Below, in pieces: positions 1 to 48,096 of a stretch of DNA of 64,000 bases. The stretch comes from Candidatus Poriferihabitaceae bacterium (GTDB taxonomy: Bacteria; Pseudomonadota; Gammaproteobacteria; Arenicellales; Poriferihabitantaceae), in NCBI GenBank assembly GCA_965237995.1, contig CBDEGO010000003.1:192511-256510 (forward strand), given 5' to 3'. A program made the position numbers and the translations under genes. How positions within the stretch are numbered: position 1 is the stretch's first letter; the number at the start of each line of letters is the position of its first letter. The notes beneath the pieces were generated by a model, which saw only the letters and a list, made by a program, of their open reading frames with translations, did not search any database and was not told the origin of the DNA.

Positions 1-335
1 GGTGCCGCTTCTGGTTCTTCAACTTTAGCCAAAGGAGAGGGCTCAGTAATTGCCTTCTTCTTGCGGATGACTAAAGAACGAATGACGGCATCATTGAATT
101 GAAAGTTATTTTCAATTTCGCGCAAAGTTTCAAGGCTAGCCTCGATGTTCATCATCACGTAATGTGCTTTATGTACGTCCTTGATCATATAAGCCAACTG
201 CCGTCGACCCCAATCTTCGGACCGATGAATGGTACCACCGCCTGTTGTTACCATATTCGAGTATCGCTCGATCATGGCCGGGACTTCTTCGCTTTGATCC
301 GGATGGACCAAATAGACTATTTCATAGTGTCGCAT
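1..335 (-). CDS. rpsF: 30S ribosomal protein S6 (C-terminal end runs off the window)
   Basis: Reverse translation from the ATG at 335-333 gives [67 protein letters not shown]..., a canonical S6 N-terminus. AAGAGGAG lies just upstream. It is absent from the ORF track because there is no stop inside the window. Confidence 0.9.
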
Positions 336-750
336 TGTGCTCCTCTTGGAAATTTCCCCCTGACTTACATAAGCAGTGGAGAAAGGAGTTAAAATTCGGC
401 CAACCGCCATAGGCGGCTAGACCAGTAAGGCGCGCGATTCTATTGACATTGACAATAGATAGCAAGCAGCAAATGGCCTAAAAAATAGATGGGTTATCCT
501 GTTTTAGTACAAAAACGACCGACTTTTATATTTTGCCAGTCAATATTTGCTGATTTACAGCGAAAATGTGGGCTTGTTATACCATAAGCATTATTTATTA
601 CTTGATGATAAGCCGCTTATGCAGTTACACTTCGAAGTTGGAGTTGGCACATTAAAAAATTATAGCACGCTTCATTTTTTAACAAGACTTCAACTTTCAA
701 TAAGCCAGTTTGCAACTCGCGAACTCTTATCATTCAATTCGAGGAAAATT

Positions 751-1773
751 ATGAAACTCACTAAAATCGCAGCGATTGCTGCAACAATTTCTTTTGCAGC
801 AACTGGTGCTGTTCAAGCAGGTACTCTGGCAGACGTTCAAGCACGTGATGAATTAAACTGCATTGTAACTACAGGTTTGGCTGGTTTCGCAGCCCCTGAT
901 GAAAACGGCCGTTGGGACGGCTTTGATGCTGGATTCTGCCGCGCGGTAGCAGCCGCAGTATTAGGTGATGGTGAAAAAGTTAAGTTTATACCTTCTACTG
1001 GCAAAACACGTTTTACACTATTAAGTTCTGGCGAAGGGGATATCCTGTTCAGAAACTCTACTGAAACATTATCTCGTGATGCTGATTTAGGTATCGTTTT
1101 CTTACCCGTTAACTACTATGACGGCCAAGGTTTCTTGATCCGTAAGGCAATGGGTGTAAATTCAGCTAAAGATCTAGACGGCGCATCTGTATGTATCCAA
1201 ACAGGTACAACAACAGAACTTAACTTGGCTGATTACTTTCGTATTAACGGCATGAACTACGAGCCAGTTAACATCGAAACTAACGAAGAAGGTATCTCTA
1301 ACTACTCTGCTAACCGTTGTGACTTATATACAACAGACGCTTCAGGTTTAGCTTCAACGCGTGCCGCATTAGATAATCCTAATGACCACGTATTGCTTCC
1401 TGAAATCATCTCTAAAGAGCCACTAGGTGGTGCAGTACGTGAAGGTGATGACGAGTGGCGAGCGATTGGCAAGTGGGTTGTAAATGCTTTGATCAATGCA
1501 GAAGAGTTAGGCGTTACTAAAGCCAACGCAGCAGATCTAGCTAAAACAGCTGGTGACAATCCAAGCATCAACCGCCTTTTAGGTACTGAAGGCAATATGG
1601 GTGAGATACTTGGCTTAGACGCTCAGTGGGCACTACGTGCTATTCAAGCAGGTGGTAACTATGCTGAATTGTTCGACGCCAACATTGGCCCAGATACGCC
1701 TCTAGGTTTAGCGCGTGGTTTGAACGCGTCTTGGAGAGATGGCGGCATCTTATACGCGGCTCCAATTCGATAA
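751..1773 (+). CDS. aapJ: General L-amino-acid ABC transporter, periplasmic substrate-binding protein
   Basis: The start is trimmed to the ATG at 751, preceded by GAGGAAAATT, which yields a signal peptide MKLTKIAAIAATISFAATGAVQA. The protein resembles AapJ/BztA and is followed by two permeases and an ATPase. Confidence 0.85.
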   Translation: MKLTKIAAIAATISFAATGAVQAGTLADVQARDELNCIVTTGLAGFAAPDENGRWDGFDAGFCRAVAAAVLGDGEKVKFIPSTGKTRFTLLSSGEGDILFRNSTETLSRDADLGIVFLPVNYYDGQGFLIRKAMGVNSAKDLDGASVCIQTGTTTELNLADYFRINGMNYEPVNIETNEEGISNYSANRCDLYTTDASGLASTRAALDNPNDHVLLPEIISKEPLGGAVREGDDEWRAIGKWVVNALINAEELGVTKANAADLAKTAGDNPSINRLLGTEGNMGEILGLDAQWALRAIQAGGNYAELFDANIGPDTPLGLARGLNASWRDGGILYAAPIR

Positions 1774-1805
1774 CCAAGTTAGGTTACTGAATTTTAGATC
1801 GTACA

Positions 1806-1833
1806 TTGGGGCGCTTAGGCGCCCCAATTTGGT
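1806..1833 (+). terminator. Intercistronic hairpin/partial terminator after the binding-protein gene
   Basis: TTGGGGCGC-TTAG-GCGCCCCAA is a 9-bp perfect stem followed by TTTGGTT. It lies between aapJ and aapQ. Confidence 0.6.
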
Positions 1834-1953
1834 TCTACAGTTTGCACAACCAAAGATGCAGAACTTCAAGCCACCTACCCTTACAGACAATCATTCAAGG
1901 CGGGCAAGCTTTATTGGCCTTCCGTTATTTGAAGCCTTCAAAAATTAAAATCA

Positions 1954-3156
1954 ATGAGTGAATCTACCATCACCCCAAATGCGCTAGCGCAGCGCAGTGT
2001 TATATCCAGATTATGGAATGACAAAGAAACACGATCAGTGATAATTCAAGTTATTGCCATGGTGTTAATCTTCGCCTTTTTTGCCTATGCCATTCGCAAC
2101 GCAGTAGTGAACTTGGAAGCGTTAGGCAAAGGATTTAGTTTCAGCTTTTTAGCTCAACCGTCCAGCTACGATATCAACCAGCATTTTATCGAATATACCT
2201 CTCGATCAAGTCATTTTAGAGCCATGCAAGTGGGTATTCTAAACACACTGTTGGTCGCAATCGCTGGCATCGTACTCGCTACAATACTAGGTTTTATCTT
2301 AGGCGTACTACGTTTATCGAAAAATTGGCTAACCAACAAACTGGCTTATTTTTACATCGAATACGTACGTAACGTACCCGTGTTACTACATATCTTGTTA
2401 GTACATGGCATTATCGTACATAGTCTACCTGTTCCCAAAAAGGCGATTACCGTTGGCGATGGTGCTTTTTTGACCAATCGTGGTTTCTTCACACCTAAAC
2501 CCCTTTACGAGCCGCTATTTTGGATAGTCGCTGCTTTATTTGTTGGTGGCGTTATTTTTACTTGGCTGTTTCGACGTCATGCCAAGAAAGTCCAAGATGC
2601 AACCGGCAAAATCTACCCAGTTGGCTGGATTAGTTTAGGAGCCATCATTGGCGTTCCACTATTAGCTTATTTCTTATTAGGTAGTCCGATTACCTGGGAG
2701 ATTCCCGAATTAAAAGGGTTTAACTACAAGGGTGGTATGGTAATTCGCCCTGAATTTATCGCGTTATGGCTTGCTCTGTCTTTGTATACGGCCGCATTTA
2801 TCGGCGAGATCGTTAGAGCAGGCATTACTGCGGTTAGCTACGGGCAAACCGAAGCGGCCTCTGCGTTGGGAATTAATCGAAACCGTACGCTTAGCTTAGT
2901 GGTTATACCGCAAGCATTACGTATCATCATCCCACCTCTAACAAGCCAATACCTTAATTTAGCAAAGAATTCTTCTTTGGCAGTTGCGATTGGTTATATG
3001 GATATCGTAGCAACCATCGGTGGTATCTCACTCAATCAAACTGGGCGAGAAATGGAATGCATGACCATTGTGCTATTGCTGTATTTGGTGATCTCCTTAT
3101 TTATCTCCGCGGTGATGAACTGGTACAACAACCGCATGAAACTGGTAGAGCGCTAG
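1954..3156 (+). CDS. aapQ: Amino-acid ABC transporter permease
   Basis: The 400-aa protein is multi-TM and has the EAA-type loop region (SYGQTEAASALGINRNRTLSLVVIPQALR) typical of polar amino-acid permeases. Confidence 0.85.
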   Translation: MSESTITPNALAQRSVISRLWNDKETRSVIIQVIAMVLIFAFFAYAIRNAVVNLEALGKGFSFSFLAQPSSYDINQHFIEYTSRSSHFRAMQVGILNTLLVAIAGIVLATILGFILGVLRLSKNWLTNKLAYFYIEYVRNVPVLLHILLVHGIIVHSLPVPKKAITVGDGAFLTNRGFFTPKPLYEPLFWIVAALFVGGVIFTWLFRRHAKKVQDATGKIYPVGWISLGAIIGVPLLAYFLLGSPITWEIPELKGFNYKGGMVIRPEFIALWLALSLYTAAFIGEIVRAGITAVSYGQTEAASALGINRNRTLSLVVIPQALRIIIPPLTSQYLNLAKNSSLAVAIGYMDIVATIGGISLNQTGREMECMTIVLLLYLVISLFISAVMNWYNNRMKLVER

Positions 3157-3165
3157 GACATAAAA

Positions 3166-4275
3166 ATGAAAGAAAATAATTATACAGTAGGTGAACACCC
3201 TGATTTAGCACCACCCGCTAATCTGGTCGGGCCAATGGCGTGGATAAAAAATAATTTATTCGCAACGCCGGCAAATATAGTCATGTCTATTCTGGTGATG
3301 TGGCTGTTGTATAAAATCATCCCGCCGATGGCGAATTGGATGTTTTTCGATGCAGCCTTTACAGGCGAAGACCGTAATGCTTGTCGGGCTGTCGCAGATG
3401 GTGCGTGCTGGGCGTTTATCAATGAACGGATGCAACTATTCACCTACGGGTTTTACCCGCATGCAGAGCGCTGGCGAGTCAACCTTTCCTTTATTCTACT
3501 GGTAATTGCCGTTGTACCTATCTTGTTCGACAAGGTCCCATTTCGTAAGTATGGCTTGTATTTCTCATTGGCTTTCCCATTTATTGCAGCGTGGTTATTA
3601 TTGGGCGGCCTTGGTTTAACGCCTGTCTCTACCGATCGCTTTGGCGGGTTTATGCTTACCATGGTCATCGGCGTAACGGGTATTGCAGCATCCTTGCCAA
3701 TCGGTATTTGTTTAGCACTAGGACGACAATCTCAGCTTCCGCTGATTCGCATATTTTGTGTCGCCTTTATTGAATTTATTCGTGGCGTACCGCTGATTAC
3801 ACTGTTGTTTGTATCATCGACCATGTTGAGCTATTTCCTACCACCAGGCACGAAATTTGACTTACTGCTGCGTGTATTGATAATGGTAACGCTGTTTGCT
3901 TCAGCCTATATGGCAGAAGTAATCCGCGGCGGCTTACAAGCAATCCCTAAGGGGCAAACTGAAGCCGCAGACTCCATGGGCCTTAAATATTGGTCTTCAA
4001 TGCGTTTGATCGTATTACCACAAGCCTTAAAAATTTCTATCCCTGGCATTGTGAATACGTTTATCGGTTTATATAAAGACACCACCTTGGTGCTGATTAT
4101 TGGTTTGTTTGACCCACTGGGTATTGGTCGAGCATCCTTGGCCGATACCAAGTGGACAGGCCTTTCAACCGAAGTATATTTATTCGTCGCCCTATTCTTC
4201 TTCATATCTTGTTTTGCTATGGCCCGTTACTCACTCTATCTAGAAAGCAAATTGGAGACCGGACACAAACGATAA
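3166..4275 (+). CDS. aapM: Amino-acid ABC transporter permease
   Basis: The 369-aa protein is multi-TM with the loop KGQTEAADSMGLKYWSSMRLIVLPQALK. It is the second permease of the operon. Confidence 0.85.
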   Translation: MKENNYTVGEHPDLAPPANLVGPMAWIKNNLFATPANIVMSILVMWLLYKIIPPMANWMFFDAAFTGEDRNACRAVADGACWAFINERMQLFTYGFYPHAERWRVNLSFILLVIAVVPILFDKVPFRKYGLYFSLAFPFIAAWLLLGGLGLTPVSTDRFGGFMLTMVIGVTGIAASLPIGICLALGRQSQLPLIRIFCVAFIEFIRGVPLITLLFVSSTMLSYFLPPGTKFDLLLRVLIMVTLFASAYMAEVIRGGLQAIPKGQTEAADSMGLKYWSSMRLIVLPQALKISIPGIVNTFIGLYKDTTLVLIIGLFDPLGIGRASLADTKWTGLSTEVYLFVALFFFISCFAMARYSLYLESKLETGHKR

Positions 4276-4328
4276 GAACCCGTTAAGGCGCTTATTAGTA
4301 AGCGCTCACAAATTTAAGAGATAAAACT

Positions 4329-5102
4329 ATGACAGATCAAAATCAAGCTGCCACTGCAACCAACTCAGAATTGGCGATAGAAATCCGTAACATGCATAAG
4401 TGGTACGGACAGTTTCATGTGCTTAAAGACATCAATCTAGATGTCACACGTGGAGAGAAAATCGTAGTTTGCGGCCCTTCTGGTTCAGGCAAATCAACCA
4501 TGATCCGCTGCATCAACCGCCTAGAAGAGCACCAAAAAGGTGACATCATTGTTGATGGCACCGAGCTTACTAATGATTTAAAAAATATCGAAGCGGTTAG
4601 ACGAGAGGTTGGAATGGTATTCCAACACTTTAACTTATTTCCACATTTAACCATTTTAGAAAATTGTACACTCGCGCCAATTTGGGTACGTAAAACACCT
4701 AAAGCGGAAGCAGAAGATATAGCCATGCAGTTTCTTGAGCGGGTCAAAATTCCAGAGCAAGCGAATAAGTACCCCGGTCAGTTATCAGGCGGGCAACAGC
4801 AACGTGTCGCCATTGCGCGCAGCTTATGTATGCGCCCACGCATCATGCTTTTTGACGAGCCTACATCAGCACTTGACCCTGAAATGATCAAGGAGGTTCT
4901 CGATACAATGATTGAACTTGCGAATGAGGGGATTACCATGATTTGTGTTACCCACGAAATGGGTTTCGCCAAAACAGTGGCCGACCGCGTCATTTTCATG
5001 GATGGTGGAGAAATTATCGAAGAAAATAACCCACAAGAATTCTTCGAAAATGCGCAACACGAGCGTACCAAATTATTCTTGAGCCAAATTCTAGAGCACT
5101 AA
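4329..5102 (+). CDS. aapP: Amino-acid ABC transporter ATP-binding protein
   Basis: Walker A is GPSGSGKST, the signature is [13 protein letters not shown] and Walker B is [10 protein letters not shown]. Confidence 0.92.
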
Positions 5103-5123
5103 ACACCACTCGGTACACTATTT

Positions 5124-5158
5124 AGGGTGCGTATTCGTTAGATTACGCGCCCTTTTTA
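5124..5158 (+). terminator. Rho-independent terminator of the aap operon
   Basis: AGGGTGCGTA...TACGCGCCCT forms a stem with one G-U pair, followed by TTTTTA. It overlaps the last codons of the convergent ORF 5143..5598. Confidence 0.6.
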
Positions 5159-5598
5159 TGCACTTTTGTTTCCCAAATAGGGTTTAGCTGGTCATCTTGA
5201 TGCCAAGCCCACGCGCAATCTAACAAAGTGCGTATTTTAGCTAATCCCTTGCACCCATCTTGTAATATACATTGAATCGCTGTACGACCGCGTAGCTTAC
5301 TGTTACGTTGTTGCATCCACGCGACCCCTGCGCCGCTTTGAGAAGGGTAACTAGTTTGCAACGCGGTATCTATCCCTAATACATGGTCGACTCTTTGCAC
5401 CGAATCTGGCGACTCAGGTATTGGCTTCATCCCGCTGGTGTAGCTAGATAGCTGTCTTTGCTTAATGCACTCTTGCAAACCTAGAATGGTTAAATGCGCA
5501 TCACTACTGACACCCCAATGGTTTAACACTTGTATAGCGGTAGCTAGTTGTGCAGCACTTATCGGCGGCAAAATACCAATTTGTGTAGAAGGTGACAT
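5143..5598 (-). CDS. Hypothetical protein, DUF2384-like (Xre/MbcA/ParS antitoxin-type C-terminal domain)
   Basis: The C-terminal segment WMQQRNSKLRGRTAIQCILQDGCKGLAKIRTLL resembles the DUF2384 signature (W..pn..LgG.tP.e.l..g....v...L). No RES-type partner gene is adjacent. Confidence 0.4.
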   Translation of the reverse strand: MSPSTQIGILPPISAAQLATAIQVLNHWGVSSDAHLTILGLQECIKQRQLSSYTSGMKPIPESPDSVQRVDHVLGIDTALQTSYPSQSGAGVAWMQQRNSKLRGRTAIQCILQDGCKGLAKIRTLLDCAWAWHQDDQLNPIWETKVHKKGA

Positions 5599-5676
5599 AC
5601 GATAAGAATTGATAACTGGATGGTTGCCCCCAATAATACGGATAAGTTAAGTAAACCTATACCCCCAATTGTGCCT

Positions 5677-6354
5677 ATGCAGACAAAAATACTGGTTATT
5701 GAAGATGATAAAAAGACAGCAGATTTCATCGAGCATGGGCTAAAGACGTCGGACTACGACGTTACCCTTAGTCACTCGGGAGGAGACGGCTTTGCATTAG
5801 CGCTGCAAGGAGAATTCGATATCCTAATTGTAGATCGTATGCTGCCCATCATGGACGGATTATCTATCGTTGAGAAACTACGTGCGGCGCAGATTCCTTC
5901 AGCTATTTTATTCTTGAGCGCGCTGGGCGAAGTAGATGACCGTGTCGCTGGTTTGAATGCGGGTGCCGATGATTACCTCCCAAAGCCATTTGCAATGCCA
6001 GAGTTGATTGCGCGTGTCGAAGCTTTAACCAGGCGTTCGCAAGCGGAGCAACCTGCAAGTGTGTTACGAGTAGGCGAACTATCGATGGACTTAATCAGCC
6101 GAACGGTCGAACGCGATGCAACAGAAATTATTTTAAAACCTAGAGAGTTTCGATTATTAGAGTATTTCATGCATAATAGTAACCAAGTTATCACCCGCAT
6201 GATGTTGCTAGAGAAAGTCTGGGACTATCACTTTGATCCGCAAACCAATGTGATTGATGTCCACATAAGTCGCTTACGCTCAAAAATTGACAAGCCGTTT
6301 AGTTCAGCCATGTTAGAGACTATTCGCGGCTCCGGGTACATGCTACGTGGCTAA
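5677..6354 (+). CDS. OmpR-family two-component response regulator
   Basis: The start is trimmed to MQTKILVIEDD. The receiver domain carries the phospho-acceptor context ILIVDRMLP. The C-terminal winged helix includes VIDVHISRLRSKI. Confidence 0.9.
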   Translation: MQTKILVIEDDKKTADFIEHGLKTSDYDVTLSHSGGDGFALALQGEFDILIVDRMLPIMDGLSIVEKLRAAQIPSAILFLSALGEVDDRVAGLNAGADDYLPKPFAMPELIARVEALTRRSQAEQPASVLRVGELSMDLISRTVERDATEIILKPREFRLLEYFMHNSNQVITRMMLLEKVWDYHFDPQTNVIDVHISRLRSKIDKPFSSAMLETIRGSGYMLRG

Positions 6355-38687: not shown

Positions 38688-38764
38688 GTCCCCGTAGCTC
38701 AGCTGGATAGAGCAGCCGCCTCCTAAGCGGCAGGTCGGACGTTCGAATCGTCTCGGGGACGCCA
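38688..38764 (+). tRNA. tRNA-Arg (anticodon CCU), argW-type
   Basis: The sequence folds by hand into a cloverleaf. The acceptor stem is GTCCCCG/CGGGGAC, the anticodon stem is GCCGC/GCGGC with loop CTCCTAA, the T arm is GGACG-TTCGAAT-CGTCT, and a CCA end is encoded. Confidence 0.93.
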
Positions 38765-38865: not shown

Positions 38866-39846
38866 ATGGCATATATATCAAAGCACGGAACCTCTGGGTG
38901 GCAAGTTCGTATTAGAAAGAAAGGTCAGCCAAGTCAGTGTAAAACTTTTAAAACCAAAGCTGCTGCACAGCGCTGGGCACGAGATATTGAATCTCAAATG
39001 GACAATGCTACATTTGTTTCAGCGAGCGAAGCGGAAAGCACTACTCTTGAAGAGCTGGTTGATAGATATATTAGAGAGGTCCTCCCGCTAAAGAAATCAC
39101 AGCGCCAAGTAATCTCTCAATGTAAGTTGATTACCCACCAACTAGGTCACTTACACCTAACAGCTCTTACACCATCAGTTCTTGCAAAATTTAGAGATCA
39201 ACGTCTTAAAACTGTCAAAGGTCATACTGCTCGTAAAGACTTACTCCTTATCCGTAGAATACTTGTACAAGCGCAAAAAGAATGGGAAATTTATTTGCCG
39301 CGTGGTAATCCTGTTGATTCTGTCTCTATTCCTACGCAACCCAAAGGCAGAGATCGGAGGTTTGTGGGTGATGAAGAAGGACGACTTCTTAAAGCTACTC
39401 GCTCTTATGGTGGTGAGATTTCCAATATCATTATCTTTGCTATTGAAACAGGTATGCGCAGAGGCGAAATTGTTAGTCTAAAGTGGAGTAATATTGATCT
39501 TTCAAAACGAACAGCAACACTCTTTGATACCAAAAATTCTGAGGGTCGTACGATTCCACTAACAAAGCGTGCTTACGATTTACTTAGAAGTCTACCAGTT
39601 AATATTTCTGACAAAGTATTCAGCATGAGACCTGATTCTATTACTCAGGCTTTTGAGCGTATTCGCAAGAAAGCCCATATTGAAAACTTTCATTTTCATG
39701 ATCTGTGCCATGAAGCAACAAGTAGATTCTTCGAAAAAGGGCTCTCTATTATGGAAGTCTCATCTATTACAGGACATAAAGACTTAGCGATGCTAAGGCG
39801 CTATACGCATCTGAGGGCTGAGGATTTGGTCAAAAAAATTGACTGA
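38866..39846 (+). CDS. Tyrosine-recombinase family integrase, probably inactive (catalytic Arg II is Cys)
   Basis: The gene starts 101 bp downstream of the tRNA. Box I is ETGMRRGE and the C-terminal tyrosine context is LRRYTH. Box II reads HDLCHEA instead of HxLRH. Confidence 0.85.
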   Translation: MAYISKHGTSGWQVRIRKKGQPSQCKTFKTKAAAQRWARDIESQMDNATFVSASEAESTTLEELVDRYIREVLPLKKSQRQVISQCKLITHQLGHLHLTALTPSVLAKFRDQRLKTVKGHTARKDLLLIRRILVQAQKEWEIYLPRGNPVDSVSIPTQPKGRDRRFVGDEEGRLLKATRSYGGEISNIIIFAIETGMRRGEIVSLKWSNIDLSKRTATLFDTKNSEGRTIPLTKRAYDLLRSLPVNISDKVFSMRPDSITQAFERIRKKAHIENFHFHDLCHEATSRFFEKGLSIMEVSSITGHKDLAMLRRYTHLRAEDLVKKID

Positions 39847-39912: not shown

Positions 39913-40215
39913 TTATTCGGTTTTTTTTTGTATACAATCAAGCTCTATTTCAATTTGTTCCTTAGATAAAGTATTACCGCCTGAATAATCTTTTGAGGCG
40001 TTTACCATAACAGTCTCACTATCTAATTCTTCTGCACTGCCAACCTCTTGTTTACACTTTTCGTCGGGCTTCAAAATTTTCACAATTCCTCGAAGCTCGT
40101 CAATTTCCTTTGATACCGCCAGATCTTTACTGTTTATCATTTCTCCTAATCCACCACCAAAAGAAGTTTGCGCTAGCAACAGAGATGGAATAAGTATTAA
40201 TATTCTAGTGTACAT
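39913..40215 (-). CDS. Small exported hypothetical protein (100 aa)
   Basis: It has a signal peptide (MYTRILILIPSLLLAQTSFG) and is very AT-rich. It overlaps the upstream ORF by 19 bp. Confidence 0.5.
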   Translation of the reverse strand: MYTRILILIPSLLLAQTSFGGGLGEMINSKDLAVSKEIDELRGIVKILKPDEKCKQEVGSAEELDSETVMVNASKDYSGGNTLSKEQIEIELDCIQKKTE

Positions 40216-40787
40216 TTTTTATCTTTCTCAAATTCGTAAAAGTTTGAATGCTCCCAAAATACCTCTCTTTTTTGGGAAGATAAGTTCGTTGTAACCTTTA
40301 CTACTTCCACGGTACAAAGTATCACATATCCATAATAGCTGGTTGCAACTTCCTTTGGTGAGACCTTAAATGGCTCTATATTATACATTGCGTTTTCACC
40401 ATCATAATTTAACAGAAGTGGCAGTGGAATGTCAGTTATTGGCTTATCAACCATATCAGGGTCTCGCAAAATCTTATCAACCTGATCACTCAAAGGAAGC
40501 ACTTTTTGTACATATATGATGCCTTCGTCAATGATATCCTCAGCATTGCCCACATTTTCTACTTGAACTCCAATAGAAACATACCTTTGACTACTGTTTA
40601 AAACATAGCTGTCAATTGTATGTTTTGTGTTCAACCTCGAAGTGTATTCAGATGTATAGATAAACCAAAATGCTGCACCCATTATGCCTAGAAGTGTGAA
40701 CAGATCTTTATACCAAGTAATTCCTCTAGAAAACATATGACGAATCAAGTGCACTTTCATATATAAATTATGCAAGATTCGAGACAC
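40197..40787 (-). CDS. Single-pass membrane hypothetical protein (196 aa)
   Basis: One N-terminal TM segment (LFTLLGIMGAAFWFIY) precedes a beta-rich domain of about 150 aa. I recognise no family. Confidence 0.5.
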   Translation of the reverse strand: MSRILHNLYMKVHLIRHMFSRGITWYKDLFTLLGIMGAAFWFIYTSEYTSRLNTKHTIDSYVLNSSQRYVSIGVQVENVGNAEDIIDEGIIYVQKVLPLSDQVDKILRDPDMVDKPITDIPLPLLLNYDGENAMYNIEPFKVSPKEVATSYYGYVILCTVEVVKVTTNLSSQKREVFWEHSNFYEFEKDKKCTLEY

Positions 40788-40806
40788 ACATACTATTTAC
40801 AAAGGC

Positions 40807-41487
40807 TTAAGGCTTTACTGAGTTAAAGGGTAATCCCGCTACAAACCATGCTACTCCAAATGCAATAAGCGCCACAAATTCCGCAACATAAACTGTTTTC
40901 GGGTGGTGAATACCAAAGTTCAGTTTAAAAGCAACAATACCTAAGATTGCTAACAAAATTAGAATGCCACAAATAATGTATATATATTGCCTCATAAATG
41001 CCCAAGTATCATTTTTATTAAATTCATATTTCTCCTTAGCTCTCAGTCTGAACGGGTAAAAGCAAAAGTAAGCTAAAATTAAAAACATAGTACCCGCTGC
41101 CAAGACATGCACTAAAGCGTTTTCTGTGACAAGGTGTTTATACTCGCAGTAATCTATACCAACTAGGGGATCACATTCAGTTGGGGCGATAGCCACGAGA
41201 AATGCTGCGAAAGAAGCGATTATGCTTGCTATACCTTCATAGAAGTAATGGCCACGATAGGCCATTAAGAAAGCACCCACAACAAAGAGTAAACCAACAA
41301 AAGCATCTCTCGCATTTGAGTAGTATGAAACACTTATTGAAGTTAAATTATCTTCTCCAGAAAAGTACGTCACTAGAACAGGTAAAAGAATTACAATTAT
41401 TCCAACCAGTAACCTAATCGTCCGATATTGAAATACCAGTTGATTTTCATTTTTTTGTAGCCAAGTGGCCTTCAAACTATCTAGCAT
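40807..41487 (-). CDS. Multi-pass inner-membrane hypothetical protein (226 aa, 5-6 predicted TM)
   Basis: Hydrophobic segments recur about every 30-40 aa. The topology is loosely DUF998-like, which I could not verify. Confidence 0.55.
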   Translation of the reverse strand: MLDSLKATWLQKNENQLVFQYRTIRLLVGIIVILLPVLVTYFSGEDNLTSISVSYYSNARDAFVGLLFVVGAFLMAYRGHYFYEGIASIIASFAAFLVAIAPTECDPLVGIDYCEYKHLVTENALVHVLAAGTMFLILAYFCFYPFRLRAKEKYEFNKNDTWAFMRQYIYIICGILILLAILGIVAFKLNFGIHHPKTVYVAEFVALIAFGVAWFVAGLPFNSVKP

Positions 41488-41732: not shown

Positions 41733-41734
41733 GT

Positions 41735-41765
41735 AAGTACCCCTCAGCCGAGCCGAGGGGTACTT
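41735..41765 (-). terminator. Strong hairpin downstream of the 764-aa gene
   Basis: AAGTACCCCTC-AGCCGAGCC-GAGGGGTACTT forms an 11-bp perfect stem. There is no clear U-tract on the minus strand. Confidence 0.4.
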
Positions 41766-41904
41766 ACCGTCATTTCAGAAACGTCCCTATCCATATTTCA
41801 CCAAACACTTGCAATTGTTACCACGGTATGCATTTAAATCTATTTGTTGCCTATTTTGGTTGGGCAAGATAGATTAGCTAAGCGTGCAACAAACTGCTAT
41901 CTAA

Positions 41905-44199
41905 TTAAATATCTTCCTCCTCATCGCAAAAACAGGGGGAGCAAGGTTGAGCTAGTGAAAACGCAGCAGTGTCAGCATGACGTAGGTGATTAAGTCGGGT
42001 ATAACCATTTTGCGCCCACGGGACAACATCCAGCCGTTCAGCAAATGCTGCGTTTGAGCATGTGGTTAACAATACCGATACTGTAATGTCTTTTTCATAC
42101 TGAAACCCACTGGTATTGATATATCCGTTATTACCTGCTTTTCCAGCTAGGCCTGTAGTAGCTGCTACAGGAATTGCCGGTCCGCTAGCCTTGAATGAAT
42201 TAAAAGTATAGGTAGCAAGATCATTGGGATGCCTAGCAATAAACCTGAGACGCGCATCATCGCCGGGCTCGTAATTGTGGAAACCACAAGCTGGGTCAGG
42301 CGTAACATCACCTGCTACTGGCAACACCTCTGCATAGCAATGATTATTGTCTATACGTACCGTCATCTTGAAGCCAATAGTTTTACCTGATACATCGAGT
42401 ATTCTGTTGTAAGCAGGTGCAACACTCGATGTGATTGTGCCAGTACCAAAAGGTGCGTTTTGATCAGTTATACGAAGATCAATGCCCTTGTCTGTCCAAT
42501 TTACAAGATTGCCTGTATCATCGAACAACTCAAACTTAAGCTCGTATCGTCCAGCCGCTAAATCATCAGGTGCTGGCCCTGGGGTTATCCCTGTTATTGG
42601 ACCACTGTCAGGAGTTCCGGCCAAGCTGGCAGATTCAAAATAAGCCGTTGCAAGGTCTACATGTTCATTGAATACCTTCCATTCAGCACCGACCGGAGGA
42701 TTTACTGGACGAATCCTGAAAAGATTTTCGATAGGTGCCACGCTGGTTGGCATCGGCCCCATCAAATCTGCAGGATAACTGGTACCATCACGATAGTGTC
42801 TGAAGACCTCTTTTGTCAAGATAGTCCAGTCACTTGCCGGTGCATTTGCCGGATTGAGAACCGTCGAAATGGGCTCTGAAGCAGGTTCCGATACGGCGGT
42901 ACTAATACCATCAGGACCACTTAGCCTCCGATATGACCACCGGTAATATGGAACGTTTTTGGTATCGATCAGGCACGTTCTGCTAAAGTCAACGCGAGGT
43001 TCAAGTGTTGCACCAAAGGGTTCACCGGTGGTGAGCAATCCTTCAAGTGCAGACCCAGCAGAATCAGAATTGATCTCTTGAATCGCAACTTGATTGCCAA
43101 TTGACTTCATAAGAACTTGGCATCCAGGCAGATCGGGCTCATCTGTACAGCCAGGTACTCGTGCATCCGAAACGCGAACGGTCACTTCAGAGCCACAAGA
43201 AAAGTTCCAGTAAGTATGACAAGGAATCGGAGGGTGATAAACCGTCTCGTAGCCACTTCCAAAATCATACTCGACCCAGAAATACAAATCTGGATGATCA
43301 CCGAGACGAGGATAGGATATGTTGGCCTCAAATCTGCCATAGTCATCCGTTGTAACAACAGCAACCTCGTCACAGCGGAATTGCCACCACGGCCAGACAC
43401 AAAACCAGGGATAAATCAGCTTCCAGTTTTCGGACAGCACACTCCGAAGCACTTCGGTTGATGATGTCCCAAGCTGTAGGACAAGCTCGGACGTTGATTG
43501 TGGCAGTGATCTCGTCACATCTTGCAAATTAGTGTTGAGGTGCCGTTTTCCAGCAGATACAAACTCCGGTTGAGGTTGAAATTCATCTAGTGAAGTGTCA
43601 AACCGGAACACCGATCGATCAAACGGTACAGAGTCCTGGTTAGGAAATGGACCTGTTGGAAACGGATCACTGGGGTCAACAACCGGTGGATTTTTAATCA
43701 CATCCAAAAAATCATCTCGCAGTCTATTCAATTCAATCTCAGGTAATCTCCAAATCCATAAAGGAAGTTTGTCAACCTCACAAATATGGACACGTGCACC
43801 GCAAATGGCACGACTATCGCTACTGCGTATTACCTGGCCGTGTACATAGCAACGACCATATAACCACCTCTCGACTATTGAGTCGGGGATATGGATATTA
43901 TCGATGAGTGTTCCCTGCGTTGACACAAGCGCCTGGTATGCCCCGACGCGATACATTGTTTCTAGTGTTAGTTTTTTTTCGTTAGTGTTGTCTGTGATCG
44001 GTGTTATAAATACGCGTGCGCGGCGTAGCGCCGATTCAGATATATCTAATTTAACTTTGCCGGATTTAACTTCAGCTCGGTCGAGTTGATTGCCCGATGA
44101 ATCAAACACAACCGCATGCAGTGTCTCATCAAAATCTGATCGTTCTTCGTACGTTACCTTAAAAGCAATGCCAGATCGTTTACCTTTATTCTTTTCCAT
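41905..44199 (-). CDS. Large orphan protein (764 aa), Cys/Trp/Pro-rich, no signal peptide, no recognisable catalytic motif
   Basis: This is a long uninterrupted ORF. A CarboxypepD_reg/prealbumin-like signature appears to be split by an insert (CYVHGQVIRSSDSRAICGARVHICEVD ... CDEVAVVTTDDYGRFEANI). There are about 16 Cys residues, and the C-terminus is PCSPCFCDEEEDI. Confidence 0.7.
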   Translation of the reverse strand: MEKNKGKRSGIAFKVTYEERSDFDETLHAVVFDSSGNQLDRAEVKSGKVKLDISESALRRARVFITPITDNTNEKKLTLETMYRVGAYQALVSTQGTLIDNIHIPDSIVERWLYGRCYVHGQVIRSSDSRAICGARVHICEVDKLPLWIWRLPEIELNRLRDDFLDVIKNPPVVDPSDPFPTGPFPNQDSVPFDRSVFRFDTSLDEFQPQPEFVSAGKRHLNTNLQDVTRSLPQSTSELVLQLGTSSTEVLRSVLSENWKLIYPWFCVWPWWQFRCDEVAVVTTDDYGRFEANISYPRLGDHPDLYFWVEYDFGSGYETVYHPPIPCHTYWNFSCGSEVTVRVSDARVPGCTDEPDLPGCQVLMKSIGNQVAIQEINSDSAGSALEGLLTTGEPFGATLEPRVDFSRTCLIDTKNVPYYRWSYRRLSGPDGISTAVSEPASEPISTVLNPANAPASDWTILTKEVFRHYRDGTSYPADLMGPMPTSVAPIENLFRIRPVNPPVGAEWKVFNEHVDLATAYFESASLAGTPDSGPITGITPGPAPDDLAAGRYELKFELFDDTGNLVNWTDKGIDLRITDQNAPFGTGTITSSVAPAYNRILDVSGKTIGFKMTVRIDNNHCYAEVLPVAGDVTPDPACGFHNYEPGDDARLRFIARHPNDLATYTFNSFKASGPAIPVAATTGLAGKAGNNGYINTSGFQYEKDITVSVLLTTCSNAAFAERLDVVPWAQNGYTRLNHLRHADTAAFSLAQPCSPCFCDEEEDI

Positions 44200-44762: not shown

Positions 44763-45026
44763 ATGCAAATAACATTTAACTTTTTTGAAGCAGTTCAAAT
44801 CAGATGGCCAGTGTCTTGGAACGATAGAGAAACTAAAGGAAATGTTCTTCCTACTACCAACGGATTTAAAGCTCTAATGAGGTTCCTCAAGCCTGTATAT
44901 TTTGAACTCGTCAAGGAGAGTAATATTGGTAGGGTTCCAAGTATAGATGAGTTCTTCTCAATATTAAACGGAGTAGAGCTGGAGGATAATCAGTTTAATA
45001 CCTTTAAGCCTGGTGTTCTAGGTTGA
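44763..45026 (+). pseudogene. Gene fragment truncated by the IS3 insertion
   Basis: The 87-aa ORF takes its TGA stop (45024-45026) from the first bases of the IS3 terminal repeat (TGAT...). It is bounded upstream by the IS6 scrap. Confidence 0.45.
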
Positions 45027-45061
45027 TTTAATTGCACACATTAATAAGAGGATTTTCGTAT

Positions 45062-45629
45062 TCATTCGGACCTACATAGTCCAATAGTTGAATGCAGCCT
45101 AGTTCCGTTATAGTAACGGATGTATTTATTTACGTCATTGATTACTCCGTTGCGAGTCAGACGAATAACATTGGTTAGCCATTCATATTTCAAGCTACCA
45201 AAGAATCGTTCTACAACTGCGTTATCATAGCAGTTGCCTTTGCCACTCATTGAGCTTTGCATGCCATATTGGGTTAGCTGCTTACGATAAGCATGGCTCG
45301 TATATTGAATTCCCCGATCACTGTGATAAAATAGACCTCGAGATGGTTTACACAACGCATGAGCGTAATTCAAAGCACGCATTACTAATTCAGTAGTCAT
45401 GCGTTGTTCATAGCCCAGTCAACGATCTTGCGAGAATATAAGTCCATCATAATAGCGAAATAAATCCAGCCTTGCCGCGTGGGAAGATAAGTAATATCAG
45501 TACCCCAAGCTTGGTTCACCTTGACTGGCTTTCGGCGTCAATGATAATACGCGCTAGTACTGACACGTAACGCTGAGCATAAATCCACCACTGAGTAGTT
45601 TAACGTCCACTGTGCAATAGTCTTGAATT
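45062..45629 (-). pseudogene. IS3-family transposase OrfB, disrupted
   Basis: The intact C-terminal rve region is HSDRGIQYTSHAYR...GNCYDNAVVERFF. The region 45401-45629 keeps only frame-shifted pieces (FKTIAQWTLNYSVVDLC; GTDITYLPT-like) and is about 300 bp short. Confidence 0.8.
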
Positions 45630-45923
45630 TCACTTCATTTCTTTCGCAAAGTAGGCGCTGGCCTTTTTTAATATCTCCTTCTCAGTACGGGGCTTTTTAA
45701 CGTCCTTACGTAACCTAAGCAGTTCTTCTCTATCTTCACCCGTTAAGCGTTCGCCGCTTGCCTCTTCAGCGATACGCTGTTTCCATCCATATATTTGGTT
45801 TGCTCGAACGCCGACAGCATCAGCAGCTTCAAGCACGGTGTAGCCCTGGTCTGTGACTAGAGCAACTGCTTCTTCTTTGAATTGCTTGGTATATGTTTTA
45901 TTCTTACGTTTTGTAGATGTCAT
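45630..45923 (-). CDS. IS3-family transposase OrfA (HTH)
   Basis: The protein begins KTYTKQFKEEAVALV and ends in a leucine-zipper-like tail. The canonical A-AAA-AAG slippery heptamer is at 45671-45663. Confidence 0.85.
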   Translation of the reverse strand: MTSTKRKNKTYTKQFKEEAVALVTDQGYTVLEAADAVGVRANQIYGWKQRIAEEASGERLTGEDREELLRLRKDVKKPRTEKEILKKASAYFAKEMK

Positions 45924-46007
45924 TTGAACCTCGATAAGTGATTAAATTATCTCTTATCAATCTGGTCAATTCCATCAACTTAGAACACCATCATCAAATA
46001 GTGCAAA

Positions 46008-47504: not shown

Positions 47505-48062
47505 AACAACCACCGTCTAAAGACGGTGGGTTAAAAGATTGGACTGGAAGTCCAGTTTATCGGCTAAAGCTGATTGATCACTCGACATCGAAATGGTCAT
47601 TTGGATTCCTCTCAAAATGATGCTCCAAGTATTCTTTTATCATCTCTTTCGTTAATTCCCCTGCCGTCACACAAAAATAACCTCTGGCCCAAAACTGTCG
47701 ACCCCAATATCGCTTCTTTAAATGCGGAAACTCTTGAAATATCTTTGTCGAACTTCTCCCTTTAATTCGCCGCATGATCTCTGATGGGGACAAATTCGGT
47801 GGCGCCGATATCAATAGATGTACATGATCTTTACTTACCACTCCGCGCAATATCTCTATCTCTAAATACTCACATGTTTGGCGTACTAATTCTCGAACCC
47901 TTTCTCCAACTTCTTCTATAAGGACTTGATAACGATACTTCGTGACCCACACAAAATGGTACTCTACCTTGTATTTCGTATGCGAACCATGACGATATTT
48001 CATCGTCATATCTTAAAGCCAACTGCTAGCTTAAAGCTACCCGTCTAAAGACGGGGGTTTAA
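47505..48062 (-). mobile_element. IS200-type insertion sequence (IS200/IS605 family, tnpA only)
   Basis: tnpA is flanked by similar subterminal hairpins in the same orientation. These are CCACCGTC-TAAA-GACGGTGG (47510-47529) and CCCGTC-TAAA-GACGGG (48040-48055). The exact ends are uncertain. Confidence 0.8.
47578..48009 (-). CDS. tnpA: IS200/IS605-family Y1 (HUH) transposase TnpA
   Basis: The N-terminus is KYKVEYHFVWVTKYRYQVL, the HUH motif is DHVHLLIS and the catalytic Tyr context is WARGYFCVTAG. The protein is 143 aa and appears intact. Confidence 0.92.
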   Translation of the reverse strand: MTMKYRHGSHTKYKVEYHFVWVTKYRYQVLIEEVGERVRELVRQTCEYLEIEILRGVVSKDHVHLLISAPPNLSPSEIMRRIKGRSSTKIFQEFPHLKKRYWGRQFWARGYFCVTAGELTKEMIKEYLEHHFERNPNDHFDVE

Positions 48063-48096
48063 ACCTTTATATCGGACGAATTAAATTTGCTGAATC

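Follow-up and report, generated by a model that had tools for sequence, protein, structure and literature searches.

The protein analyzed here, of 764 amino acids (aa), is encoded on the reverse strand at positions 41905 to 44199 of a 64,000-nucleotide (nt) stretch of the genome of Candidatus Poriferihabitaceae bacterium (contig CBDEGO010000003.1, positions 192,511 to 256,510), which at its full length is called the window below. We assign the gene with high confidence to a large, previously undescribed, and widespread family of proteins of ~750 aa. The open reading frame (ORF), whose position and length in a first-pass annotation made from the sequence alone were reproduced exactly, comprises 764 codons and runs from an ATG start (N-terminus of the protein, MEKNKGKRSGIAFKVTYEER) to a stop codon at 41905-41907. 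A Shine-Dalgarno sequence, GAGGGA, lies 8 to 13 nt 5' of the start, and since the ORF is already the maximal one at its position, with no room for a 5' extension, no signal peptide can be concealed upstream. A repeat scan and folding located a 16-bp perfect hairpin on the same strand at 41733-41767, 138 nt 3' of the stop codon. It is GC-rich, with a 3-nt loop and no U-tract (free energy of -34.5 kcal/mol in a 71-nt context, z of -4.9), and is probably a transcript end or a repetitive extragenic palindromic-like element. The nearest ORF 3' of the gene begins 418 nt downstream, and this gap together with the hairpin makes the gene look monocistronic, which suggests that it is transcribed alone. 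A sigma-70 promoter scan upstream of it gave a result not above chance. The ORF list, the homologues, and the AlphaFold2 (AF2) model all mark the gene out, and that it is a genuine, expressed-looking gene we state with high confidence.

The first 107 residues (43879-44199; this and all the following segments are on the reverse strand) comprise a conserved basic N-terminus devoid of a signal peptide and, after it, a small N-terminal beta-sandwich, as judged from the AF2 model, the family alignment, and hydropathy; the predicted strands span residues 11-67 with a predicted local distance difference test score (pLDDT) of 87 to 94, and a conserved RxxFxVSTxxRPDF motif stands out in the alignment. 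The adjoining segments would constitute one transthyretin/CarboxypepD_reg-like sandwich split by an insert. Its first half (strands A and B), delimited by the alignment, AF2, and the splice test described below, corresponds to residues 108-146 (43762-43878) and holds C117, C133, H138, C140, and E141, while the second half, recognized by the splice test and the alignment, corresponds to residues 274-346 (43162-43380; FRCDE..TTDxxGRF..PDLYFWVEY..C327..C335). The insert between them, residues 147-273 (43381-43761), was defined from AF2, the alignment, and a family survey and contains amphipathic helices, a Pro-rich disordered stretch at residues 176-228 (pLDDT under 50), and the beginning of a Trp cluster, YPWFCVWPWWQFRC, which the first-pass annotation had pointed out and which occupies residues 263-276. 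Its variable stretch measures 62 aa in the window protein and anywhere between 30 and 129 aa in the family, and it carries 0 to 5 copies of a PQPxP(P) motif, with 1 to 5 copies in 60% of the members. Residues 347-752 (41944-43161) are predicted from AF2 and Foldseek to form a compact C-terminal module of three beta-rich domains bearing the invariant motifs YYRWSYRRL, AAGRYELxLELF, VRVDNN, CGFHxY, and ARHPN. The chain ends at residues 753-764 (41908-41943), set apart by Cys co-variation and a motif scan, with CxxCxC followed by an acidic tail; the C-terminus is PCSPCFCDEEEDI.

The full-length AF2 model had a pLDDT of 82.5 and was all-beta save for a few helices, with disorder limited to residues 176-228 and 437-455. 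When the C-terminal 419 aa were modeled separately, the pLDDT rose to 91.7 with a predicted template modeling (TM) score of 0.88, which indicates that these residues would fold as one rigid module. A Foldseek search of the full model against PDB and BFVD returned generic multi-Ig-like proteins only, at TM-scores of 0.18 or lower, including an archaeal S-layer protein, adhesin repeats, a mastigoneme, the macroglobulin (MG) domain arrays of A2M and C3, integrins, and phage tail and Big-domain proteins, whereas the C-terminal module gave no match against PDB at an E value of 1e-3 or lower. The modeled protein is thus composed of ordinary sandwich units in a predicted arrangement without precedent among solved structures.

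The first-pass annotation had also noted a CarboxypepD_reg motif apparently interrupted by an insert of about 120 aa. In the intact protein, PF13620 found no match at its gathering threshold of 32.3 bits, and a Pfam scan of 52 aligned family members gave a match to it in a single one (E value, 0.094). Residues 147-273 were then deleted from the window protein, and the equivalent columns from nine homologues. Once spliced, 8 of these 10 members matched PF13620 with E values of 0.0014 to 0.24 and scores of 12 to 19 bits, which are below the threshold, in one continuous alignment that covered profile positions 2-45 and spanned the junction. The AF2 model agrees with this result: strands at 114-125 and 136-142 are followed by helices, the disordered Pro-rich stretch, further helices, and then five strands within residues 276-343, an order compatible with a seven-strand prealbumin-like sandwich, for which Foldseek gave no specific match. 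The interrupted motif therefore stands as a sub-threshold similarity seen after removal of the insert, which measures ~127 to 130 aa rather than 120, and a split prealbumin-like (transthyretin/CarboxypepD_reg) domain with an insert is probable, not proven.

Searches against collections of known proteins placed the 764-aa protein in none of them. Pfam, NCBIfam, and PHROGs yielded no match, neither it nor its three neighboring small ORFs matched PADLOC-DB v2 at an E value of 1 or lower, and PDB offered nothing usable, whether queried with the single sequence or with the family profile. With tblastn, no match was found in 50,697 phage records or in 72,556 plasmids. Among 2.9 million IMG/VR contigs, one (L095, positions 1-5888) encodes a family member; there, the gene lies at a prophage end beside genes for a 426-aa protein, an SPFH/Band_7 protein, and an integrase, and not among structural genes, a cargo-like position that parallels the one in the window. 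These results bear directly on whether the protein could be a structural component of a phage or tailocin, such as a tail fiber or receptor-binding protein, or else a classical secreted adhesin. Such a role would accord with the multi-Ig-like chain, with the presence of phage tail proteins, Big-domain proteins, and adhesins among the Foldseek matches, and with the nearby integrase, but the family is missing from the phage and plasmid records, its sole IMG/VR representative sits at the integrase end, and there is no PHROG match, no recurrent structural-gene neighbor, and no signal peptide. We regard this explanation as largely refuted. No known enzyme, adhesin, or tail-fiber family was matched in any of these searches (Pfam, NCBIfam, PHROGs, PADLOC, PDB, Foldseek, tblastn). 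The comparison of structures and the family searches, which the first-pass annotation had named as checks, disclosed no known structural family but did define a family of 879 clusters together with its neighborhoods.

An initial search of 5.8 billion proteins at an E value of 1e-3 or lower recovered 592 homologues, none of which has a Pfam domain and all of which are labeled hypothetical. When 1.84 billion representatives, clustered at 50% identity, were searched exhaustively with a profile, the family grew to 879 clusters at an E value of 1e-3 or lower and 340 at 1e-30 or lower. Nearly all members are 700 to 820 aa long and align end to end in a single architecture. Relatives are encoded in 307 of ~185,579 one-per-species genomes, the hosts being Gamma-, Beta-, Alpha-, and Deltaproteobacteria, Acidobacteriota, Chlorobiaceae (Chlorobiota), Chloroflexota, Saprospiraceae (Bacteroidota), Nitrospina (Nitrospinota), Zixibacteria, WOR-3, one actinobacterium, and, among the archaea, the methanogens Methanothrix and Methanolinea. 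Cultured carriers include Lysobacter enzymogenes, Pseudoduganella violaceinigra, Aquincola tertiaricarbonis, Paracoccus endophyticus, and Sphingobium. A literature search turned up nothing specific on the family.

Identity across phyla and into the archaea amounted to 35 to 65%. The closest relatives of the window protein were ~64 to 70% identical to it, among them a Malonomonas metagenome-assembled genome and metagenomic contigs at 64 to 67%, and the Kangiellaceae proteins were 58 to 60% identical; compared with 51 members, the window protein showed 44 to 70% identity over 97 to 100% of the length. Over 52 diverse members the mean column identity was 50%, and ~90 positions were invariant, including C117, C133, H138, C140, E141, C267, C276, D277, E278, C327, C335, and C351 as well as R615, D617, N618, N619, C638, H657, and C714. 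The window protein has all the invariant columns, including those in ARVHICEVD, PDLYFWVE, YYRWSYRRL, VRVDNN, CGFHxY, and ARHPN. The family occurs sporadically yet keeps a high identity between phyla and between domains, which, on the sequence comparisons, points to its horizontal spread under strong purifying selection. The integrase found beside the gene in the window and in L095 and the insertion sequence (IS) elements flanking it in two other loci (L002 and L006) fit such a spread.

The cysteines of this protein are at odds with its lack of an export signal. As had been claimed before, there are many of them, some in CxxxxxxC-type pairs and some at the C-terminus; the protein has exactly 16 Cys, along with 15 Trp, and the Cys occupy positions 117, 133, 140, 267, 276, 327, 335, 351, 360, 409, 621, 638, 714, 753, 756, and 758, with Cx6C (133/140), Cx7C (327/335), and Cx8C (267/276 and 351/360) spacings. 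The first 40 residues are hydrophilic, and no transmembrane segment was found, the top 19-residue hydropathy of 1.04 being below a transmembrane-like level. The lack of a signal peptide at a hydrophilic N-terminus, asserted in the first-pass annotation, is borne out by the maximal ORF and by hydropathy and extends to the whole family: an N-terminal hydrophobic segment was not found in 310 of 314 members, so the missing Sec/Tat signal is a family trait and not an annotation error. The conflict between many Cys and no export signal is therefore real and holds across the family. A regular-expression scan for GxxxxGK[ST] (Walker A), HxH, HExxH, and GxSxG found none of them in the protein, in line with the earlier statement that the first three were absent, and no nuclease, NTPase, or pore-forming signature was detected in it.

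Co-variation of the Cys, expressed as phi, was measured over 314 family sequences. The strongest pair was C115/C298, with a phi of 0.86: both residues are present in 268 members, neither in 36, and only one of the two in 10. Lower values were obtained for C133/C351 (0.67) and C140/C276 (0.54). The loss of C115 goes with that of C298, whereas C117 and C267 are retained in over 99% of the members, and the window protein is itself an instance, having G in place of C115 and R in place of C298, both of which are kept by relatives at 70% identity. Pairwise loss is how disulfide partners behave, and the family Cys pairs, as far as co-variation can tell, look like disulfides despite the missing export signal. 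If the prealbumin-like topology is taken as a guide, the pairs 115/298, 133/351, and 140/276 would lie on neighboring strands, with 140/276 clamping the base of the insert.

ORFs were extracted from ~90 related loci and clustered, and the recurring modules were resolved by iterative hidden Markov model (HMM) searches. Among 118 genes that directly flank the family gene, surveyed with Pfam, the S8 subtilase was the sole enriched family, being present in seven. The first module consists of a TPR-CHAT protein of ~1000 to 1135 aa (CHAT E value, ~1e-63), a sigma factor of the extracytoplasmic function (ECF) type, a single-pass anti-sigma-like protein, and often an S8 peptidase. It lies directly upstream of the family gene, on the same strand, in four Kangiellaceae, three Chloroflexota, and one Acidobacteriota loci; TPR-CHAT occurs in eight distinct family-gene loci, S8 likewise occurs in eight, ECF sigma and anti-sigma genes border the family gene in Kangiellaceae and in an Acidobacteriota locus, and S8 alone adjoins it in four more. 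Examples of the module are at L001 2668-9831, L005 3245-9852, and L092 2578-9687, the last with the S8 peptidase. The upstream regions of the window gene and its Kangiellaceae orthologues contained no convincing shared motif that could represent a common ECF-type promoter. The Kangiellaceae loci with this module also hold a gene for a small HExxH protein and another for a His-rich one. Loci of the Chromatiales type (L089 2494-9693, L036, and L039) are arranged differently: there, genes for a CHASE2-guanylate/adenylate cyclase and a secreted FecR-TPR protein of 1120 to 1160 aa precede the family gene, as do two small lipoprotein-like ORFs.

The second module is a cassette of five genes, c18 (~274 aa), c17 (~299 aa), g3 (~240 aa), g4 (~350 aa), and g5, found at L092 10001-14508 and L004 12297-16780 and also in L093 and L094. 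The g5 product is clearly akin to monodomain class II terpene cyclases (PDB 8pak, 1e-28; MstE, 1e-11), and c18 belongs to a large family with 932 database matches, all of them unannotated. At least the first three cassette genes follow the family gene in nine loci (Sphingomonadales, Paracoccus, Vicinamibacterales, and Acidobacteriota). In L092 to L094 the cassette is found without the family gene, and in L092 it divergently adjoins the first module. As this module flanks the family gene and, in L092, the cassette, all three form one association network, and by analogy with a published system the family protein and the cassette look like regulated outputs of the ECF/TPR-CHAT module: in Myxococcus xanthus, a TPR-CHAT anti-sigma factor and an ECF sigma factor (DdvA/DdvS) constitute an inducible switch controlling a defense island (PMC11506125). 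The family is not homologous to any of the five cassette proteins by hhalign (probabilities below 1%), and nothing specific on the cassette was found in the literature. A cupredoxin-like C-x3-H-x3-M motif is present in the g3 protein of Sphingomonas. An assignment of g4 as an ABBA prenyltransferase was dropped because neither PDB nor NCBIfam supported it, and an association of the family with resistance-nodulation-division (RND) or other metal-efflux genes, seen in ~5 lineages only, was judged too weak. No partner from either module was found within the 64-kb window.

Since the S8 and TPR-CHAT proteases are the sole recurrent enzymatic neighbors, the protein could be a protease-controlled pro-protein or bait, in which S8 or CHAT would cut the Pro-rich insert and thereby either activate or free the C-terminal module or trap the protease. 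The insert is disordered and of variable length (30 to 129 aa), and the MG arrays of A2M, C3, and CD109 are among the Foldseek matches, with E values of 1e-4 to 1e-3. The TM-scores of these matches, 0.09 to 0.14, however, amount to generic sandwich similarity, the 764-aa protein has no thioester motif or thioester-containing domain (TED), and most loci have no protease nearby; moreover, the CHAT protein more likely takes part in sigma-factor signaling, as DdvA does (PMC11506125). On balance, we find control by proteolysis improbable.

In the window itself, the gene lies beside a set of features that together define a mobile element. A tRNA-Arg(CCT) gene at 38688-38764 on the forward strand, identified by tRNA detection and Rfam, is the likely integration site. 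It is followed on the same strand by an AT-rich tyrosine integrase gene at 38866-39846 (Pfam Phage_integrase, 1e-26; PHROG 1, 6e-64) and then, on the reverse strand at 39913-41487, by three AT-rich small ORFs, orf100, orf196, and orf226, taken from the ORF list and profile searches. The first of these, orf100, encodes a protein with a hydrophobic segment at its N-terminus and shares a 19-nt overlap with orf196, and orf226 encodes a DUF998/PF06197-type membrane protein with six transmembrane segments, whose homologues are found mainly in marine bacteria. In iterative HMM searches of 90 related loci, none of the three small ORFs had a homologue near family members, and because of this, and of the unrelated DUF998-type nature of orf226, they were rejected as conserved partners. 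Beyond the 764-aa gene, a decayed IS3-family element, recognized by its 40-nt terminal inverted repeats (83% complementary) and its ORFs, occupies 45011-45990 on the reverse strand, on or close to the island's far edge; its orfA is intact (45630-45923) and its orfB is truncated (45062-45400).

A mosaic origin of the locus had been proposed from spot counts of ~55% G+C near 42541 and ~25% near 39913, and when recounted these 60-nt spots gave exactly 0.55 and 0.25. The locus is indeed mosaic, but the compositional outliers turned out to be the AT-rich neighbors: the G+C content at third codon positions (GC3) is 0.29 for the integrase and 0.28 to 0.32 for the three small ORFs, while that of the 764-aa gene, 0.382, is host-like, within one standard deviation of the value for 28 long window ORFs (0.417 ± 0.040). 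The overall G+C content of the gene, 46.4% against a window mean of 44.5%, exceeds the mean through codon positions 1 and 2 and therefore reflects amino-acid composition. A tyrosine integrase next to a tRNA gene, together with atypical composition (GC3 of 0.28 to 0.32 versus 0.42 for the host), identifies the region from 38.8 to ~46 kb as a small tRNA-Arg/integrase integrative island, located between gshA/tRNA-Arg and glpK. A copy of the tRNA 3' end that could serve as attR was not found with three or fewer mismatches. A 14-nt AT-rich repeat occurs at 38763 and 44246, possibly by chance, and the IS3 remnant may have erased the far boundary of the island. The tRNA was the only match in an Rfam scan of 38 to 48.5 kb. 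We conclude with high confidence that the 764-aa gene was acquired on, or next to, this island. Farther along the window, an IS200/IS605-type tnpA gene (47578-48009, within 47513-48063) is inserted between glpK and glpD and bordered by a direct repeat of 23 nt, within which lies a hairpin, CCGTCTAAAGACGG.

Mobile surroundings of this kind raise the question of whether the protein is a stress- or phage-induced effector of defense or competition carried as cargo of mobile elements, an explanation that overlaps the one we prefer below. The family is sporadic (307 of ~185,579 species genomes) yet 35 to 65% identical across phyla and archaea, an integrase adjoins the gene in the window, the L095 copy lies at a prophage end, and those in L002 and L006 are bordered by IS elements; furthermore, the ECF/TPR-CHAT switch governs a defense island in Myxococcus (PMC11506125). 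On the other hand, no PADLOC match and no nuclease, NTPase, or pore-forming signature was found, the Chlorobiaceae copy resides among housekeeping genes, and nothing ties the family to known defense genes, so that we rate a defense role as rather unlikely.

The explanation we favor, with a probability of only about 0.3, casts the protein as an effector with a binding or structural role and no enzymatic activity, stabilized by disulfides, which would act outside the reducing cytoplasm and in some lineages be under ECF/TPR-CHAT/S8 control. Its localization, binding function, and regulation are inferred, in contrast to the existence of the family, the domain layout, the Cys co-variation, the missing export signal, the neighborhood links, and the island setting. 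The chain of beta-sandwich domains would serve as the binding or structural element and would be held together by paired Cys (115-298, 133-351, 140-276, and others), and it is from this stabilization that action outside the reducing cytoplasm would probably follow. Release or export would take place independently of Sec and Tat, and the target would be engaged through the Trp-rich loop and the C-terminal module, where the majority of the invariant polar residues are located. Where a genome has the regulators, an envelope-signal cascade comprising the ECF sigma factor, the anti-sigma factor, the TPR-CHAT protease, and the S8 protease would have the protein as its output. The window copy is a solitary, horizontally acquired one, with its own ribosome-binding site and a downstream hairpin, on the tRNA-Arg/integrase island.

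Several observations weigh against such an extracytoplasmic effector. Neither Sec, Tat (twin-arginine), and lipobox signals nor sorting signals were found in the family, no secretion-system genes recur beside its members, and no export route was found. The regulatory link is confined to about a quarter of the sampled loci; most loci, including the window, have no conserved partner, and in the Chlorobiaceae locus L087 the family gene stands among housekeeping genes without one. Many family members come from strict anaerobes, and Cys co-variation among related sequences can exaggerate coupling. In addition, C360, C753, C756, and C758 form a set of four that vary jointly, with phi of 0.5 to 0.87, and this behavior, combined with the CxxCxC spacing, gives C360 and C753xxC756xC758 the look of a Zn(Cys)4-like site, as read from the alignment. 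Zinc sites of this type are typical of cytoplasmic proteins.

The latter observations could also be accommodated by a cytoplasmic metal-binding scaffold, sensor, or buffer, with structural zinc or another metal bound at C117/C133/H138/C140 and at C360/C753/C756/C758. It would explain why the whole family has no export signal and why C360 and the three Cys of the tail vary together, and it would suit the invariant H138 close to C133 and C140, the position of the Kangiellaceae gene, which has a His-rich protein encoded on one side and a CzcB-type RND pump on the other, and the many anaerobic hosts. The top co-variation, that of C115/C298, is nevertheless strictly pairwise, unlike what a four-ligand site would predict. 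CxxC knuckles are absent except in the tail, RND pumps are adjacent in ~5 independent lineages only, and multi-domain Ig-like chains are unusual among cytoplasmic metal proteins. A metal-binding role is in our opinion doubtful, albeit a serious contender.

A broader version of the disulfide-stabilized effector would make the family the effector of a hitherto unrecognized inducible envelope-response system, in which an ECF/anti-sigma pair together with TPR-CHAT and S8 would drive, as outputs, a signal-less, disulfide-paired all-beta protein that leaves by a non-Sec route, a terpene-cyclase cassette, or both, with solitary copies traveling as cargo of integrative elements. The exported all-beta protein would in that case bind a surface or an invader. 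We consider this scheme, taken as a whole, unlikely. Irrespective of the function, few families this large and conserved are without a Pfam or NCBIfam model or a solved relative, and disulfide-like Cys in a family without an export signal pose a biochemical puzzle. The links to TPR-CHAT/S8/ECF and to the terpene-cyclase cassette, together with the cultured carriers, open the question to experiment, which could uncover a new secretion route or a new class of output for prokaryotic caspase-like signaling.

Compared with known systems, the family shares with the CarboxypepD_reg/transthyretin-like domains (PF13620 and PF01060) the patterns hGxVxxxxxxxxhxxAxVxh and TDxxGxFxh, which align in 8 of 10 members after removal of the insert. 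It differs from them in scoring 12 to 19 bits versus 32.3 and in having the domain interrupted by ~130 aa, with ~11 Cys and covering ~110 of the 764 residues. The best Foldseek matches, the Haloferax S-layer protein csg (7ptp), the adhesin repeats (6xi3), and the mastigoneme (9b4h), with E values of 1e-6 to 1e-5, are likewise chains of sandwiches; the TM-scores do not exceed 0.15, however, there is no sequence similarity, and the family has no signal peptide, anchor, or repeat periodicity. The MG arrays of A2M and C3 (Foldseek E values of ~1e-4 to 1e-3) are also sandwich arrays, and the 764-aa family, too, is associated with proteases. In C3 and A2M, the MG6 domain is interrupted by a flexible or helical insertion, the bait region. 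The 764-aa protein, in contrast, has no thioester (CGEQ), TED, or CUB domain, is half the size or less, and reaches TM-scores of 0.09 to 0.14 only, and A2M proteins are exported whereas the family lacks a signal peptide. The regulatory setting most resembles DdvS/DdvA, in that the family gene in Kangiellaceae, Chloroflexota, and Acidobacteriota is directly downstream of the genes for TPR-CHAT, the ECF sigma factor, and the anti-sigma-like protein. Here, TPR-CHAT and the anti-sigma factor are separate proteins, S8 is often added, and the output is the all-beta protein or the terpene-cyclase cassette instead of CBASS or CRISPR; the window locus, which has none of the regulators, is unlike DdvS/DdvA altogether. 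We therefore rate the family as lying outside the known kinds, conforming to none of those tried but its own, with the caveat that its domains are ordinary beta-sandwiches.

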